NCBI GenBank assembly: GCA_023859445.1
Contig: GCA_023859445.1_4337.1
DNA: 27,839 nt
Strand: one strand, 5' to 3'
From: a phage
Shown here: positions 2,170-27,839 of the stretch, piece after piece
Layout: each line of letters opens with the position of its first letter
Position numbering within the stretch: position 1 is the stretch's first letter
Program-made: the position numbers and the translations under genes
Notes under the pieces: generated by a model
Seen by the model: the letters and a program-made list of their open reading frames with translations, nothing else
Told to the model about the DNA's origin: nothing
Databases searched by the model: none

Positions 2170-2199
2170 TTGAAAGTTCTTGACACATGTTTGTATAAT
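2170..2199 (+). promoter_or_regulatory. Candidate sigma70 promoter (TTGAAA-18-TATAAT), divergent from 2104-2132
   Basis: TTGAAA 2170-2175, TATAAT 2194-2199, TG immediately upstream of the -10. Confidence 0.45.
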
Positions 2200-2226
2200 G
2201 GTTTTGGGACTTGTATATATTACGGA

Positions 2227-2258
2227 GTTGACGAACCCTCCCCGAGGGATTCGTCAAC
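2227..2258 (+). promoter_or_regulatory. Long imperfect inverted repeat/hairpin just downstream of the promoter
   Basis: GTTGACGAACCCTC (2227-2240) pairs with GAGGGATTCGTCAAC (2244-2258): 14 bp with one bulged A, 3-nt loop. Confidence 0.55.
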
Positions 2259-2491
2259 CCCTCCCATACGGCTGAGATGCTTGCCTTGGGGTTTAAGGAT
2301 AAGTGTATCTAAATCTCATTTAAAGAAGTAACCCACTGAAATATCTACTGTTTCTTAATGTGCCGTAGATTCGCAACCATAAAAATGTAACGATTATTGG
2401 GCAGGCTTAAGGCCCGCCCTTTAGTTACCAAGTAATAAGAATAAAGGCACAACCTTCCCTAAAGAATCACAACGGCAACGTAACTATTCTC

Positions 2492-2521
2492 TTGCACACC
2501 ACAACATAATAGGGTACTATT
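2492..2521 (+). promoter_or_regulatory. Conserved phage promoter, copy 1 (TTGCAC-N17-TACTAT; palindrome AATAGGGTACTATT)
   Basis: -35 2492-2497, -10 2515-2520, palindrome 2508-2521; 35 nt upstream of the 2555 gene. Confidence 0.5.
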
Positions 2522-2554
2522 CACTTATCGAAACGAGACAGAGGAGTGAGGGTT

Positions 2555-3785: not shown

Positions 3786-3815
3786 TTGCACACTAAGATA
3801 GAATAGGCTACTATT
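3786..3815 (+). promoter_or_regulatory. Conserved phage promoter, copy 2 (TTGCAC-N17-TACTAT; palindrome AATAGGCTACTATT)
   Basis: -35 3786-3791, -10 3809-3814, palindrome 3802-3815; near-identical to copy 1 over about 35 bp including downstream AAACGAGA. Confidence 0.5.
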
Positions 3816-3963: not shown

Positions 3964-4392
3964 ATGAATAACAAAAACGAAGTATTCGAGTACTTGGTAG
4001 CGGCAATGCACCTAACGCTGGACGAACGTAAGGCACACAAGCAACAGTGCGAAGACCTGGCGCATGAGGTGCTGTCACTTAAGAATCAGTTACGTGATGC
4101 GTCAGCGCAGATTAAGGAGCTACATATGGCGCTGGTCAAAGCTACGGGCGACGCGGAGGCGTACAAACTTATCCGCAAACAGGAGCAATCCGGTTGCCGT
4201 AAAGAGGATACCCAGGAATGCGAGCATGATTGGGTGCTAGATGAAAAAGGGGACTACTTCATTTGCGCTAAATGCGGTAAGCAAGAATCGGAATTGAGCG
4301 ATTGCCAACACGCTAATACCGTCGGTTTGCGCAAAGGCTTTGCGCCGGGTTTTACTAAAAAGTGTCTTGATTGCGGGGCTAAACTGAAATGA
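3964..4392 (+). CDS. Coiled-coil protein with C-terminal CxxC...CxxC zinc-ribbon-like motif (142 aa)
   Basis: ORF track; CAKCG and CLDCG pairs near the C-terminus. Confidence 0.55.
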   Translation: MNNKNEVFEYLVAAMHLTLDERKAHKQQCEDLAHEVLSLKNQLRDASAQIKELHMALVKATGDAEAYKLIRKQEQSGCRKEDTQECEHDWVLDEKGDYFICAKCGKQESELSDCQHANTVGLRKGFAPGFTKKCLDCGAKLK

Positions 4393-11576: not shown

Positions 11577-11597
11577 AGCCCCGAAAGGGGCTTTCTT
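11577..11597 (+). terminator. Weak terminator-like hairpin after portal
   Basis: Stem AGCCCC/GGGGCT, GAAA loop, then TTCTTAT; overlaps start region of next gene so probably leaky. Confidence 0.35.
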
Positions 11598-11602
11598 ATA
11601 GT

Positions 11603-12679
11603 ATGCTATTAACTTTAGCGCCACAGGGTTTATCTATGAGCTTACTTACATCACTAATCAGCCACCAGATATGGCTGCAACGCACCGCATCCGGTGAGGT
11701 GAAAGACCTCGCGCCGTTCATTAAGGAGATGCGGGACGAAATCAAACGGCAGGTGCTGCTATTCGGCGACGACGGTCGCAGCACTGCGCGACTGAATAAA
11801 CTGTTACGTGACCTTGAAGAAGTACTGACAGGACTTACTGGTGACTGGCAAACAAAGCTGGCAGAAGACCTCAAGGAACTGGCGGTGTATGAAGCTGAGT
11901 GGAACGTAAAGACCCTGACCGCCAACGTAGATGCGGAATTTGTTACGCCCACCGCCGAACAGGTGTGGGCCGCTGCTGAGTTTCAGCCATTATCATTGAG
12001 TGGCAAGCCAGTTGATTTCACTAAACTGATGTCAGGTTGGGGTGAAACGGAAGTAGCACGTCTTGTAACCGGCGTTAAGATGGGCTTTGTACAAGGTCAA
12101 ACAACACGGCAGATTGTTAAGAATGTAGTAGGCGCCGGTGGGCTGGCTGACATCTCTGAGCGTAACGCCGCTACCGTCATCCGCACCGCGCTGTCTCACG
12201 TGTCCAACGAAGCCCGTAACGAGACGTACCGCCAGAACGACGACATCATAGAGAAGTACGAGTGGGTGTCAACGCTTGACAGCCGCACCAGTACGATTTG
12301 CAGGGTCAGAGACGGGATGACGTGGGAAATTGGTAAGGGGCCGATGCCCCCTGCCCATCCGAACTGCCGGTCGTGCACGGCTCCGGTAATCAGTTCCGAG
12401 TTCGACTTCCTCGATAAAGGCGCAAAACGCGCGGCTAAAGGCGCGGAAGGTGGCACTCAGGTAAGCGTAGACACCACTTACTACGAGTTCCTTAAACAAC
12501 AACCGGCGTGGTTTCAGGACCAGGCGCTCGGCCCGGTGCGAGGTAAGATTTTCCGTAACAGCGGTATATCGCCGGAAGAGTTTCGCGTAATATCTGTAGA
12601 TGGTTTCGGGAATCCGCTCACGCTTAAGCAGATGGCGGAACTCGATAAACGTGTTGCTGATTATCTGAAAGGGGAATAA
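11603..12679 (+). CDS. Head morphogenesis protein (SPP1 gp7 / Mu F-like minor head protein)
   Basis: ORF track; motif region DSRTSTICRVRDGMTWEIGKGPMPPAHPNCRSC characteristic of this family (from memory); alternative start ATG 11636. Confidence 0.8.
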   Translation: MLLTLAPQGLSMSLLTSLISHQIWLQRTASGEVKDLAPFIKEMRDEIKRQVLLFGDDGRSTARLNKLLRDLEEVLTGLTGDWQTKLAEDLKELAVYEAEWNVKTLTANVDAEFVTPTAEQVWAAAEFQPLSLSGKPVDFTKLMSGWGETEVARLVTGVKMGFVQGQTTRQIVKNVVGAGGLADISERNAATVIRTALSHVSNEARNETYRQNDDIIEKYEWVSTLDSRTSTICRVRDGMTWEIGKGPMPPAHPNCRSCTAPVISSEFDFLDKGAKRAAKGAEGGTQVSVDTTYYEFLKQQPAWFQDQALGPVRGKIFRNSGISPEEFRVISVDGFGNPLTLKQMAELDKRVADYLKGE

Positions 12680-13140
12680 TGATGGGCTTTTTCAAAGTAA
12701 CTGACGTACCGTCTCGTCGCGTAGTCCAGTACGCCCGCGTGTCTGGCTCTGGAGAGAACGTGGTGTTTATTGATGATGAAAGTGTACTCGGTACACCCGA
12801 AGACGATATGCCGTTTGCAGATAAAACCGGTATTGCGTTACCCGCGGCGGGCATGCTTTATGAAATTCCGTATCTGGCGGATGCAGGTGACGTGTATTTC
12901 TCGGTGCAACCGAAAGACACCGAGCTGGTCGACGGTAGCGCCACCATCACCGTCGAAGTTAAGGCGGGTAAAGCGCCGTGTGTACTGACCTGGTACAAAG
13001 ACGGTAAGGAAGTGGTAAACGCCCCGGAAGAGGCTTTGTCTCTAACGGTTAATGCAGTTGGCGAATACTTTGTTAAAGTTACTGATGCCGATGGTGTAGA
13101 GGCCGTAAGCAAAGCGGCGAAGGTTACTAAGCCAGAATGA
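12679..13140 (+). CDS. Hypothetical protein with C-terminal Ig-like (beta-sandwich) segment, 153 aa
   Basis: ORF track; C-terminal pattern TITVEVKAGKAPCVLTWYKDGKEV...GEYFVKVTDADG resembles Ig-like/BIG domains; possibly virion decoration. Confidence 0.45.
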   Translation: MMGFFKVTDVPSRRVVQYARVSGSGENVVFIDDESVLGTPEDDMPFADKTGIALPAAGMLYEIPYLADAGDVYFSVQPKDTELVDGSATITVEVKAGKAPCVLTWYKDGKEVVNAPEEALSLTVNAVGEYFVKVTDADGVEAVSKAAKVTKPE

Positions 13141-13144
13141 TAAA

Positions 13145-13169
13145 AGGCCCCTTTCGGGGCCTTATTTTT
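13145..13169. terminator. Bidirectional intrinsic terminator
   Basis: Stem AGGCCCC/GGGGCCT, loop TTTC, flanked by AAAA upstream and TTATTTTT downstream; lies between convergent genes ending at 13140 (+) and 13172 (-). Confidence 0.75.
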
Positions 13170-13171
13170 CA

Positions 13172-13273
13172 TCAAAGTTCACCATTCCCGCTATCTGCGT
13201 CCTCGACCCCGCTAACAGCCCACACAAACAATCCTAAATTAACCAGTAACACAAATGAAATTGCTACCATCAT
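13172..13273 (-). CDS. Small single-pass membrane peptide (33 aa: MMVAISFVLLVNLGLFVWAVSGVEDADSGNGEL)
   Basis: Minus-strand ATGATG at 13273/13270, SD GGAGG 5 nt upstream, own copy of the conserved promoter upstream and the bidirectional terminator downstream; hydrophobic core with acidic tail. Confidence 0.5.
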   Translation of the reverse strand: MMVAISFVLLVNLGLFVWAVSGVEDADSGNGEL

Positions 13274-13298
13274 AACCACCTCCACTATACGTTTACTT

Positions 13299-13328
13299 AA
13301 TAGTACCCTATTATGTTGGTGTCTGCAA
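13299..13328 (-). promoter_or_regulatory. Conserved phage promoter, copy 3 (TTGCAG-N17-TACTAT, minus strand)
   Basis: -35 complement of 13323-13328, -10 complement of 13300-13305; palindrome AATAGTACCCTATT at 13299-13312. Confidence 0.5.
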
Positions 13329-13342
13329 ACTATTTGTTTACG

Positions 13343-13394
13343 TATTCCAGTTATTCCACTCAATTGTAAATGTTGGAATAAGCTATTCGAATAG
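13343..13394. promoter_or_regulatory. Operator-like array of TATTCCA/TGGAATA half-sites plus 12-bp palindrome CTATTCGAATAG
   Basis: TATTCCA 13343-13349 and 13352-13358, TGGAATA 13374-13380 (8-bp IR with 15-nt spacer), palindrome 13383-13394; lies between divergent promoters. Confidence 0.4.
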
Positions 13395-13423
13395 TTGACT
13401 TTTCACCAAAAATGTGCTAAGCT
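13395..13423 (+). promoter_or_regulatory. Candidate sigma70 promoter with extended -10 (TTGACT-17-TGcTAAGCT)
   Basis: -35 13395-13400, TG 13415-13416, -10 TAAGCT 13418-13423. Confidence 0.45.
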
Positions 13424-13603
13424 CCACCTGAGCTTGTGAAGTATGAACAAGCGACCGCGGCGCGGGCAGGTAACGGAGCGGGACGTAAGTCCTGAGTGTA
13501 GTTACGCTGACGCGTTCGGAAGGGCAATACTCTATTGCTTGTGTAAAAAGTAACTGGTTTACTGAGATTACGCCGTTTCTATGTTTAAATGATAAGGACT
13601 AGC

Positions 13604-13630
13604 GCCCCGCTTTAAGGCGGGGCTTTACTT
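13604..13630 (+). terminator. GC-rich hairpin with weak T-tract just upstream of Rz
   Basis: Stem GCCCCGC/GCGGGGC (13604-13610 / 13617-13623), loop TTTAAG, then TTTACTT. Confidence 0.35.
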
Positions 13631-13647
13631 ATCGAGAAAGGGGAAAC

Positions 13648-14034
13648 ATGAATCTTAAAGCAACTGTCGTAGCGGGAGCATGTTTCATCATCCTGGCTTA
13701 CGCACACGGCATCTACCAGTATCGCAGCGGCTGGAACGGAGGCCGGGCGAATCTCGTTTCGCAGCAACAGCAGAAAGCACAGGCTGAGCTTGTGAAGAAA
13801 ACACAACGGCAGCAGCAGGATGAATCAAAGGCCGCAGCCGCCGATAACGAAGGCAAGACGAAATCAGAGGTGATCACCCGTGAAGTCGTTAAGTACATTA
13901 AAACGCCTGGCCGCAGCGTGTGCACTTTTGACCCTGAGCGCGTGCAGCTCAAGTCCCGCGCCGTCGCAAACGCCAATTCCATCCCCGGATACGACGATGA
14001 TGCAGCCGCCGTGCAAACTGGCACTGCCAAGTAA
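13648..14034 (+). CDS. Rz: Inner-membrane spanin (Rz-like i-spanin), 128 aa
   Basis: ORF track; N-terminal TM segment, then Gln/Lys/Glu-rich predicted coiled coil; contains an embedded lipoprotein gene in the +1 frame. Confidence 0.7.
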   Translation: MNLKATVVAGACFIILAYAHGIYQYRSGWNGGRANLVSQQQQKAQAELVKKTQRQQQDESKAAAADNEGKTKSEVITREVVKYIKTPGRSVCTFDPERVQLKSRAVANANSIPGYDDDAAAVQTGTAK

Positions 14035-14143
14035 CGACGCGGACGAGGATTTAGCTATTGACGTCCAGAACGCAGAATGTGTACGGCAACTGAGACTTAA
14101 AGTGTTCATGTTGCAGGATTACGTGAGGAATATTCTGGAATAG
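13880..14143 (+). CDS. Rz1: Outer-membrane lipoprotein spanin (Rz1-like o-spanin), 87 aa
   Basis: ORF track (GTG start, SD AGAGGTGA); signal peptide with lipobox LSAC followed by Pro-rich mature region; starts inside Rz in the +1 frame and extends 109 nt past the Rz stop. Confidence 0.7.
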   Translation: MKSLSTLKRLAAACALLTLSACSSSPAPSQTPIPSPDTTMMQPPCKLALPSNDADEDLAIDVQNAECVRQLRLKVFMLQDYVRNILE

Positions 14144-14222
14144 TTGCCTTGTATGTTGGAATAATTTATTCTTGACATGTAAATCCGGGTGGCCCGGATT
14201 CCAACGTCCAGGGGACATACTG

Positions 14223-15824: not shown

Positions 15825-15845
15825 TACAGTTAGTGGTAAAAACAA

Positions 15846-15865
15846 AGGGGCTACGGCCCCTTTTT
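15846..15865 (+). terminator. Intrinsic terminator after major capsid gene
   Basis: Stem AGGGGC/GCCCCT with TACG loop, followed by TTTTT (15861-15865). Confidence 0.7.
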
Positions 15866-22217: not shown

Positions 22218-22247
22218 AATAGTACCCTATTATATTTGGGTGCGCAA
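22218..22247 (-). promoter_or_regulatory. Conserved phage promoter, copy 4 (TTGCGC-N17-TACTAT, minus strand)
   Basis: -35 complement of 22242-22247, -10 complement of 22219-22224, palindrome AATAGTACCCTATT 22218-22231; drives the minus-strand accessory operon. Confidence 0.5.
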
Positions 22248-25923: not shown

Positions 25924-25958
25924 AATAGCATACTATTCAACCATATGGTATCTGTCAA
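25924..25958 (-). promoter_or_regulatory. Promoter for the endonuclease-like gene (TTGACA-17-TAGTAT) carrying the palindrome AATAGCATACTATT
   Basis: -35 complement of 25953-25958, -10 complement of 25930-25935; palindrome 25924-25937 (copy 5 of the family). Confidence 0.5.
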
Positions 25959-27436: not shown

Positions 27437-27839
27437 ATGAGCCAGGAATCAGTAGAAGCAGCCTACCGCCGTAAGCTGGCCTCAAATCCCGACGGCGAGA
27501 TGGACTACATCACGTTGCAAATCAGCCACCCGTTGCTGTCAAAGACGTATTATCTTGTGCGCGGGCTACAGGAACTTACAGCAACACTGGAGACGGGTGA
27601 AACAATCACATTCGAGCCAACCCCGATGGAGGCGTCGGGCGCGGCTAACAACAGTGACATGGACCAGACGACGACGTTTACTCTACCGGATATCCTCAAT
27701 CAACTTGATGATGAGATGGATAAAATCCCGATGAGTAACACCGAGTTGCCGAAGTTCGTATTTCGCCGTTACGTCAGCACCGACCTGTCTTACCCGGCTG
27801 ACGGCCCGGTCGTGTACGAGTTACAGGCCATCAACCAGG
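27437..27839 (+). CDS. Minor tail protein, gpL-like (N-terminal part; continues past window end)
   Basis: ATG 27437 four nt after upstream stop; open to the window edge (134 codons); follows the gpM-like gene as in lambda-type tail tips. Confidence 0.4.
   Translation, partial: MSQESVEAAYRRKLASNPDGEMDYITLQISHPLLSKTYYLVRGLQELTATLETGETITFEPTPMEASGAANNSDMDQTTTFTLPDILNQLDDEMDKIPMSNTELPKFVFRRYVSTDLSYPADGPVVYELQAINQ

Follow-up and report, generated by a model that had tools for sequence, protein, structure and literature searches.

A new family of structured RNAs, with a candidate function, occupies a key regulatory position in a large subfamily of phages, the Guernseyvirinae, and one of its members lies between the head-decoration and spanin genes of Escherichia phage K1H. 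We think it likely that this interval encodes a functional, non-coding leader RNA on the plus strand, and the explanation we prefer, tentatively, is that the RNA is the conserved, multi-domain 5′ leader of the late operon, with a core domain that would promote read-through in cis. The stretch of DNA analysed here (27,839 nucleotides, hereafter the window) is that of K1H (Kagunavirus; NC_027994) in rotated form, with 99.8% identity over the region. Kagunavirus and Jerseyvirus phages rank among the coliphages and Salmonella phages isolated most frequently, and they have uses in therapy and biocontrol; a literature search turned up no publication on their transcription or their non-coding RNAs. 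No RNA polymerase, sigma factor or recognisable antiterminator is encoded by these phages, and the leader RNA is a candidate for the missing control.

Position of the leader at the head of the late operon

The leader interval of K1H sits between a Hoc-like head-decoration gene (12679–13140) and the overlapping spanin genes Rz (13648–14034) and Rz1 (13880–14143), both on the plus strand. Rz, with its ATG at 13648, is the first gene of the late operon, and the two spanin genes are followed on the same strand by the scaffold, major capsid, head-tail and tail genes. A predicted strong bidirectional terminator (13144–13163) lies directly after the Hoc-like gene and upstream of the leader promoter. 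Two terminator-like hairpins elsewhere among the rightward genes, one after the portal gene (11577–11592) and one after the capsid gene (15844–15863, followed by UUUUUAC), are similar in style to the hairpin within the leader, and both look like partial terminators.

No tRNA or tmRNA is found by ARAGORN in the whole window, and no Rfam 15 family reaches its gathering threshold there; below threshold, the best match to positions 13150–13700 at E ≤ 10 is wcaG, with 16.7 bits against a threshold of 42 and E = 1.3. The site just 5′ of the leader locus is an insertion hot spot, occupied by an HNH endonuclease, RusA, Dam, beta-clamp or small membrane ORF. The small membrane ORF is specific to K1H, other phages having other inserts at that spot, and for this reason we rejected a type I toxin-antitoxin pairing between it and the RNA.

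The predicted leader promoter and start of the RNA

The initial annotation placed an extended −10 promoter at 13395–13423, and the sequence is as it described: a predicted sigma-70 promoter on the plus strand with a −35 of TTGACT (13395–13400), a 17-nt spacer, the extended element TGc (TG at 13415–13416) and a −10 of TAAGCT (13418–13423). A generic promoter scan makes no call here because the −10 fits the consensus at three of six positions only. The layout of the promoter (−35 TTGACT or TAGACT, 17 nt, TGn, T-A-n-n-n-T) is kept, with different spacer sequences, in all three sequence classes of the leader described below, and in each class the RNA element begins 6–8 nt past it. Judged from the position of the −10, host RNA polymerase would start the leader transcript at G13430 or A13431. 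Between the −10 and 13428 the sequence is free to differ among phages (CA, AG, GT or GA), and constraint starts at about 13428.

Two operator-like palindromes lie beside the −35, GAATA-AGC-TATTC at 13376–13388 and CTATTCGAATAG at 13383–13394. Classes A and C both have the form GAATA-N3-TATTC 6 nt upstream of the −35, and a related palindrome, AATAG-N4-CTATT, occurs at nine sites in the window where 0.6 would be expected. Such sites may bind a protein, and they could by themselves account for timing.

Three classes of the RNA element in the Guernseyvirinae

The spacer is conserved in related phages: the 256 nt at 13395–13650 are 95–99.6% identical in 180 phage records, whose hosts are E. coli, Salmonella, Shigella and Raoultella. 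Between K1H and Salmonella phage SETP13 the segment 13420–13619 is 96–100% identical and the adjoining genes 29–90%; identity drops to 58% no more than 50 nt from the Rz start and lies at 29–58% in the scaffold gene. Part of this near-identity within class A may come from recent exchange of the module rather than from selection.

Pattern scans and BLAST reveal three classes. Class A, the K1H type, occupies the late locus in 181 phage records. Class C, with 271 records, supplies the late-locus leader in most Jerseyviruses; it is beyond the reach of BLAST from K1H, and scores 36–42 bits (E about 1e-8) with the covariance model. Class B is a second copy, present in some Kagunaviruses; it has the same promoter, heads the early rightward operon by a divergent HTH gene (in Golestan, for example, at 37593–37983) and exists in several sub-variants. 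K1H has the late copy only, and its early locus (window positions 2170–2545) carries an unrelated 5′ domain. Mosaics also occur, as in one class A locus (L015) that contains a class-B-type stem. About 450 Kagunavirus and Jerseyvirus records carry the RNA element at the head of the late operon, and what the initial annotation saw in a single sequence belongs to a family that has, in related phages, an additional copy in the early region.

In viral contigs, three pattern scans return only Guernseyvirinae and chance matches, and the 86 pattern matches in 185,579 bacterial and archaeal species genomes are all chance matches. Metagenomes yield 37 true matches, which by their scores look like more Kagunavirus elements of classes A and B. 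No copies outside Guernseyvirinae-like DNA were found in the viral contigs, the species genomes or the metagenomes. Mimicry of a host RNA was likewise rejected, as 5,426 E. coli genomes contain no sequence similar to the leader.

A covarying core domain at the 5′ end of the RNA

From its inferred start to the base before the Rz ATG the untranslated leader is about 218 nt long (13430–13647, plus strand), and its first 108 nt or so (13430–13537) form a core composed of a 5′-terminal hairpin, a long bulged stem and a tail. The 5′-terminal hairpin P2 (13432–13452; GCUUGU paired with ACAAGC around a 9-nt loop) is 100% paired in all sequences, with changes of U-A to U-G only, and in every class it begins 2–3 nt from the inferred 5′ end. 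Class C carries a different short hairpin at this place (UACGC-UUUCA-GCGUA), and the sequence of the P2 loop is therefore not conserved. The long bulged stem P3/P4 (13455–13519), supported by covariation, runs from a base of CCG..CGG through GGCGC/GCGUU, CAG/CUG and GUAAC/GUUAC, with an internal loop GGAG / AGUGUA, and bears a variable cap, P4 (13479–13494), whose stem is rebuilt in each class and whose loops differ. The core is completed by a purine-rich tail, AAGGGC-N-UAUUGCUU (13520–13540), which contains a Shine-Dalgarno-like AAGGG and a UUG and shows the strongest conservation of any stretch in classes A, B and C. Besides the tail, the base of P3 is kept across classes; the P2 and P4 loops are not. 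The tail is predicted to be able to fold as a small hairpin, GGGC/GCUU, for which there is no covariation.

The structure was compared with related phages using 41 distinct sequences, in which standard pairs fill 95.6% of cells, as against 28–41% after the partners have been shifted by one to three columns. Changes on both sides are seen at 12 of the 29 pairs, in 101 cells, although this covariation rests mainly on a few deep classes and not on many independent events, and none of 500 shuffles reaches the observed covariation score. These pair counts were taken on a model-fitted alignment, and a plain MAFFT alignment gave the same direction. One pair, for example, runs C-G, U-A, A-U, and another U-A, A-U, G-C. 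Covariation across the three classes strongly supports the proposal in the initial annotation that this is a structured functional RNA rather than a coding region or a plain spacer. Its strand is given by two pairs that are G-U in 38 sequences; on the minus strand these would be C-A, and a minus-strand RNA is excluded.

RNAalifold suggested that the 5′ end pairs over a long range with the ACUUAUCGAG segment; this pairing was dropped, as classes A and C are misaligned there and full-length folds form without it. The bases of that segment instead form the better-supported lower stem of the long hairpin described below.

These patterns bear on two further explanations. Conservation might act on the DNA alone, as a target for recombination or for a homing endonuclease, or as a recently exchanged module whose RNA has no function. 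The insertion hot spot just upstream and mosaic copies such as L015 are in keeping with this, but compensatory changes, strand-specific G-U pairs and stems rebuilt in classes A, B and C are inexplicable at the DNA level, and we find the idea hardly credible. The other explanation is a riboswitch, in which the core would be the ligand-sensing aptamer and the downstream hairpin the expression platform. The arrangement is the usual one, with conserved junction and tail nucleotides, variable covarying stems and a hairpin by the ribosome-binding site. We nevertheless regard a riboswitch as very unlikely: no Rfam family matches even at E ≤ 10, there is no conserved alternative pairing between the core and the hairpin, which are separated by about 65 nt of other conserved sequence, and the element is confined to one phage subfamily.

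Coding potential of the leader

The initial annotation saw no convincing coding potential in the interval apart from a 36-codon ORF, and comparison with related phages agrees. The ORF (13443–13553) exists in K1H, but its frame is broken in relatives: 1-nt indels shorten it to 9 or 17 codons in four variants (L006, L010, L019 and L027), its ATG is lost in another (L084), and it is missing from class C. A protein-coding ORF at this position, annotated in Sciku and other phages, is ruled out by the frameshifts and the ATG loss in close relatives, and the 36-codon hypothetical protein that many genome records place at the RNA element is a misannotation.

The conserved tail raises a different coding possibility. 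Its Shine-Dalgarno-like AAGGG (13520–13524) is followed by a near-invariant UUG (13535–13537), which in K1H opens a 3-codon mini-ORF ending at 13546. If the tail were the ribosome-binding site of a tiny leader ORF, then ribosome loading or stalling, rather than the peptide, could control the downstream hairpin or the access of Rho. The UUG is present in 26 of the 28 distinct tails, always 10 nt past the AAGGG, the frame is always closed within 1, 3, 6, 9 or 10 codons, and the predicted pairing of the tail with the 16S anti-Shine-Dalgarno sequence (−6.2 to −10.2 kcal/mol) compares with −7.8 kcal/mol for the Rz Shine-Dalgarno. Two variants, however, have UUA or CUG instead of UUG, and the distance between AAGGG and UUG is near the upper limit of what is usual. 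The tail has an alternative fold as a small hairpin, and tertiary contacts of the RNA explain its invariance equally well. A mini-ORF would leave the covarying 90-nt structure upstream unexplained, and we judge it improbable.

A common 3′ module between the core and Rz

Downstream of the core, a weakly supported middle hairpin (13541–13573; GUGUAA..AGUAA-CUGGU-UUACU..UUACGC) appears in predicted folds of class A only; its variants show wobble-compatible changes only, and class C is shorter by 10 nt here. It is followed by the GCCGU block (13572–13579), which is common to all early and late leaders of the subfamily and which classes A and C share in the form CU(G/A)AGAUU(A)CGCCGU. The minimum free energy fold suggests that GUUUC at 13575–13579 may pair with GAAAC at 13643–13647, in the spacer between the Rz Shine-Dalgarno and ATG, as a closing helix. 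One compensatory change, read by eye, separates the classes in this helix, with GUUUC/GAAAC in class A corresponding to GUAU/AUAC in class C.

The long hairpin (13591–13633) consists of a lower stem, GAUAAG (13591–13596) with CUUAUC (13628–13633), a middle stem, and an upper GC stem-loop (13604–13623), with an internal loop separating the lower and upper stems. The upper stem-loop, GCCCCGCTTTAAGGCGGGGC followed by TTTACTTATC, is the GC hairpin and T-stretch that had been noticed before Rz, and it is the top terminator-like match of the scan. Its stem covaries (GCCCCGC, GCCCUGC, GCCCAGC, GCCCGGC and GCCCGAC, each with the matching 3′ arm), and in some copies it has GNRA or UNCG loops. In class C the lower stem is UAUACG/CGUAUA, in which by eye all six pairs are Watson-Crick and five of the six differ from class A, and in the early leaders it is GUAAC/GUUAC. 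The hairpin is followed by three U in class A (UUUACUU) and two in class C (UUAGCGU), and these are paired in the conserved lower stem; the class C hairpin with its following UUAGCGUAU has no U-tract, and the class B hairpin is followed by ACGUUCG. A class A variant (L016) carries a perfect 19-bp hairpin in the canonical form of A-tract, hairpin and U. Rather than standing free as a terminator, the stem-loop at 13604–13623 caps a longer conserved hairpin. The initial description of a terminator with a weak T-tract and likely read-through consequently survives in part: the U-tract is weak, but the picture of a simple terminator falls short, since the T-tract of K1H is partly paired in the conserved lower stem.

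The long hairpin ends 4 nt 5′ of the Rz Shine-Dalgarno AAAGGGG, and the sequence of the segment containing the Shine-Dalgarno and the Rz ATG (13637–13650) is conserved in classes A and C, which can be aligned over the full length of the leader to the Rz ATG. The GCCGU block and the long hairpin are present in every early leader, including leaders that have no core, and the leaders are modular, with an exchangeable 5′ domain and a common 3′ module.

This arrangement invites the alternative that the leader acts after transcription, as modelled on the phage lambda N leader and the processing sites of phage T7. The 5′ hairpin and the compact core would protect the late mRNA from decay that depends on its 5′ end, and the long hairpin would be a putative RNase III-type site or a translational operator of Rz. 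Such a role fits the location of P2 so close to the inferred 5′ end in all classes, and it fits a 19–20 bp hairpin with both stems conserved around an internal loop, 4 nt before the Shine-Dalgarno. The possible helix between GUUUC and the spacer of the Rz start, with its compensatory change in class C, and the recurrence of the long-hairpin module in all early leaders are further points in its favour. An mRNA stabiliser, however, needs no 100-nt structure with invariant unpaired nucleotides. Moreover, the hairpin of the early leaders is about 100 nt from the first gene, and control of a ribosome-binding site is therefore not its general role. On balance we consider post-transcriptional action rather unlikely.

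A proposed cis-acting leader that may promote read-through

The anatomy of the locus imposes a minimal role on the RNA. With only 24 nt between the hairpin and the ATG there is no other promoter for Rz, and because the terminator at 13144–13163 lies upstream, the RNA must at least be the Rz leader, and the late operon as a whole depends on read-through of the hairpin. Read-through is also expected, since the U-tract is weak in class A and absent in class C. The initial annotation had left the choice between a leader and a small RNA open. The distance to Rz, the upstream terminator, the class C sequence UUAGCGUAU and the partly paired T-tract of K1H all favour a leader, and we retain the small RNA as a rival.

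In that rival explanation the interval is an independent gene of about 190–205 nt for a trans-acting small RNA, with its own promoter and terminator hairpin; it might bind a protein or an mRNA of host or phage, and read-through into Rz would be incidental. The layout of promoter, structured body and GC hairpin is indeed gene-like, L016 has the canonical terminator form, and conservation is very high with unpaired bases included. The early-region copy has a further promoter-like motif between its hairpin and the first gene, so that there the RNA can stand alone and could be a self-contained gene. Yet the termination signals are weak or absent in class C (UUAGCGU) and class B (ACGUUCG), and Rz would be left without a promoter. 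There is also no seed-like region with a recognisable target, E. coli genomes hold nothing similar to the leader, and the 3′ half is common to leaders that lack the core. A trans-acting small RNA is, in our view, unlikely.

We prefer a cis-acting read-through leader for two reasons. One is the logic it shares with put and nut elements, since the structured RNA always stands at +1 of a conserved promoter and heads one or two long operons that bear terminators; the other is the lambda-like layout of the locus, considered below. In the mechanism we envisage, host RNA polymerase would make the leader from the extended −10 promoter at 13395–13423, and the core (13430–13537, approximately) would fold on leaving the polymerase into the 5′ hairpin, the long bulged stem and the single-stranded tail. 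The core would then act in cis on the transcribing complex, either alone, as put does, or as a site for loading factors, as nut does, and the polymerase would read through the leaky hairpin at 13591–13633 and the similar terminator at 15844–15863. The second domain, comprising the GCCGU block and the long hairpin, might serve as a basal stop or as a processing site and set the translation of Rz.

Antitermination as the specific mode of action is a possibility that we hold with considerable doubt, and it would be like put or nut in logic and not in ancestry. The terminator-like hairpins within the rightward genes, the second copy at the head of the early operon in some Kagunaviruses and the lack of a Q- or N-like match among 20 early-region ORFs argue for it, and the lack of any resemblance to put in either direction of search argues against it. 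The early leaders of K1H and Ent2 have unrelated 5′ domains, and if the core is an antiterminator then other modules must do that job there. It is unlikely, though conceivable, that the core represents a second, unrelated class of RNA-only processive antiterminator that needs no phage protein: the nascent 108-nt structure would bind host RNA polymerase where the late operon begins, and in some phages the early operon too, and render it resistant to terminators. If that RNA-only reading is true, the timing and balance of late genes in the virulent Guernseyvirinae are set by RNA modules that can be swapped between operons. Under the more ordinary readings, too, the element founds a new, well-covarying RNA family that is ready for Rfam.

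Comparison with known regulatory systems

Several known RNA motifs were considered and rejected. By eye, no likeness to boxA or boxB, a k-turn, a T-loop or a CsrA site fits across the classes. A packaging RNA like that of phi29 was discarded, as complementary loops are absent and the loops are not conserved. A −10-like pause element (AAGTAT), as found in putL and, as a conserved feature of the first transcribed bases, expected of lambda-type Q/qut control, is present in the P2 loop of classes A and B, but class C has UUUCA there and another class B variant has GAGAUAUC.

The GCCGTAG block of the early leaders resembles the RfaH ops/JUMPStart leaders in being a short conserved block in the 5′ leader of a long E. 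coli or Salmonella operon. The changes G4C, A7T and G8C each abolish RfaH recruitment (PMC5995543). Unlike the ops sequence GGCGGTAG, GCCGTAG carries G4C, which rules out an RfaH ops site in the shared block, and the late leaders deviate further (GCCGTTT, GCCGTAT). The sole perfect ops match in the window, at 27459–27470 on the minus strand, is by coordinate offset and annotation antisense inside a tail gene.

The PL leader of phage lambda contains nutL and an RNase III hairpin upstream of N. The leader described here is similar in its length of about 220 nt, its promoter-proximal RNA element and its large hairpin by the ribosome-binding site of the first gene; it differs in that no boxA or boxB is recognised and no N-like protein was found. 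Reading of a loop by an arginine-rich peptide is unlikely because the hairpin loops are not conserved. A PHROGs scan of 20 ORFs in the early region recognises one excisionase-like HTH protein and otherwise families of unknown function, with no Q- or N-like protein, and no Q is annotated in the K1H record.

The late leader of lambda comprises PR′, qut, the 194-nt 6S RNA and tR′, followed by the lysis and head genes. The K1H locus is laid out in the same way: from the promoter, some 200 nt of leader run to a hairpin or terminator that immediately precedes lysis and head genes. Late transcription in lambda depends on the Q protein and on a DNA site located at the promoter; the structure of its leader RNA is not known to be conserved. 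Here, unlike in lambda, the RNA structure itself is selected and the U-tract is weak.

The closest parallel in logic is with the put RNAs of phage HK022 (putL and putR), cis-acting antiterminators that require no factor and act through the zinc-binding domain of the beta′ subunit. Each put RNA is about 70 nt long, with two similar stem-loops joined by a single nucleotide. We searched for kinship in both directions. A covariance model for put, trained on 12 putL variants together with HK022 putR, scores HK022 putL at 100.7 bits and putR at 49.2 bits, and with filters off it finds nothing at E ≤ 10 at 13430–13640 or at the class B and C loci. The covariance model of the new element (R1) likewise finds no match in the HK022 put region, and membership of the put family is excluded by these searches. 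PutL starts at +2/+3 of the PL transcript (PMC9378689). Like the put RNAs, the new element is promoter-proximal, contains stem-loops with conserved bulges and unpaired bases, is present in some genomes as two copies that head two operons, and has terminators downstream with no phage antiterminator protein known. Unlike put, it has a core of about 108 nt that combines a 6-bp hairpin with a stem region spanning about 65 nt and a tail of 20 nt, and it is found in virulent siphoviruses rather than lambdoid prophages. To our knowledge put is the only family of RNA-only antiterminators, and if the element of the Guernseyvirinae were a second and unrelated one, this solution would have evolved more than once and would offer a new handle on the regulation of RNA polymerase.

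Variation and probable exchange among leader copies

At position 13526, within the conserved 3' tail of the leader core, the K1H window has A where the reference record NC_027994 and most of the late-locus class A copies have C (GGGCAAUAC vs GGGCCAUAC). No other base differs across 13100-13700. With A at this site, the small hairpin GCAAUA/UAUUGC in the tail is perfectly paired. When two loci from related phages, L015 (2212-2328) and L033 (1602-1718), are compared, a late-locus class A copy is seen to contain the middle stem of class B, the second copy found at the early promoter of some Kagunaviruses. The presence of a class B stem in the class A copy of L015 gives it a mosaic sequence, suggesting that inside Kagunavirus genomes the two copies have recombined or undergone gene conversion.

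Modular early leaders

The early leaders are modular. In K1H (2170-2545) the promoter matches the consensus, with TTGACA at approximately 2181 separated by 17 nt from a TATAAT ending at 2209, and leads into an unrelated 5' domain, which contains a long and almost perfect hairpin, GUUGACGAAcCCuC...GaGGGaUUCGUCAAC. Beyond this domain lie, in order, the GCCGUAG block that the leaders share, a GC hairpin with UUUAGUUACC after it (~2400-2430), and then the TTGCAC..TACTAT motif ahead of the first early gene. The early leader of phage Ent2 (L069, 500-700) has yet another 5' domain. In class B early leaders the hairpin GGUGCCUUCGGCACC is immediately preceded by a (CTCA)n repeat (at ~4340-4370 in related-phage locus L011, and also in L013, L018, L046, L052, and L057), whose number of units, 3 to 7, varies among otherwise close phages.

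Regions flanking the leader

In the interval that separates the Hoc-like terminator from the leader promoter, K1H has a small unannotated minus-strand ORF of 33 aa (13172-13273; MMVAISFVLLVNLGLFVWAVSGVEDADSGNGEL) with a strong Shine-Dalgarno sequence, GGAGGTGG, and a product that looks hydrophobic. Related phages carry different inserts at this position: that of Salmonella phage SETP13 is a 141-aa ORF, read as a putative HNH endonuclease from its HIDH...N...N motif, and further phages have RusA-like, Dam, or DNA polymerase III beta-clamp genes (BLAST annotation). This interval is a hot spot for gene insertion.

The gap between Rz1 and the scaffold gene (14138-14215) is a compact repeat of promoter-region motifs, namely GAATAGTTGCC, ATGTTGGAATAA, and the palindrome GAATAATTTATTC, which immediately precedes TTGACA and is followed by the hairpin CCGGGTGGCCCGG. 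The annotated scaffold start, TTG at 14172, falls within this promoter-like sequence, and an in-frame ATG approximately 50 nt downstream (MSEEVKDE...) looks the more likely start. Elsewhere in the rightward operon, hairpins after the portal gene (11577-11592) and the major capsid gene (15844-15863) resemble the leader hairpin in having a GC stem and then UUUC/UUUUUAC..UA; these are probably partial terminators that set gene product ratios.

A recurrent palindrome

The palindrome AATAG-N4-CTATT occurs at nine sites in the window where 0.6 are expected, five of them exact (2508-2521, 3802-3815, 13299-13312, 22218-22231, and 25924-25937) and the others with one mismatch (4881, 6114, 11597, and 13390). 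A longer form, TTGCAC-N17-TACTAT, is present at 2492-2530 and as the reverse complement at ~13299-13340, and a gene with a good Shine-Dalgarno sequence lies immediately downstream in both cases. In fBC-Eco01 the TTGCAC-N17-TACTAT motif was labelled 'phage promoter' by PHIRE (PMC9825357), a label that contrasts with these phages encoding no RNA polymerase, and the motif represents either a class of promoter or an operator bound by a regulator that the phage encodes.
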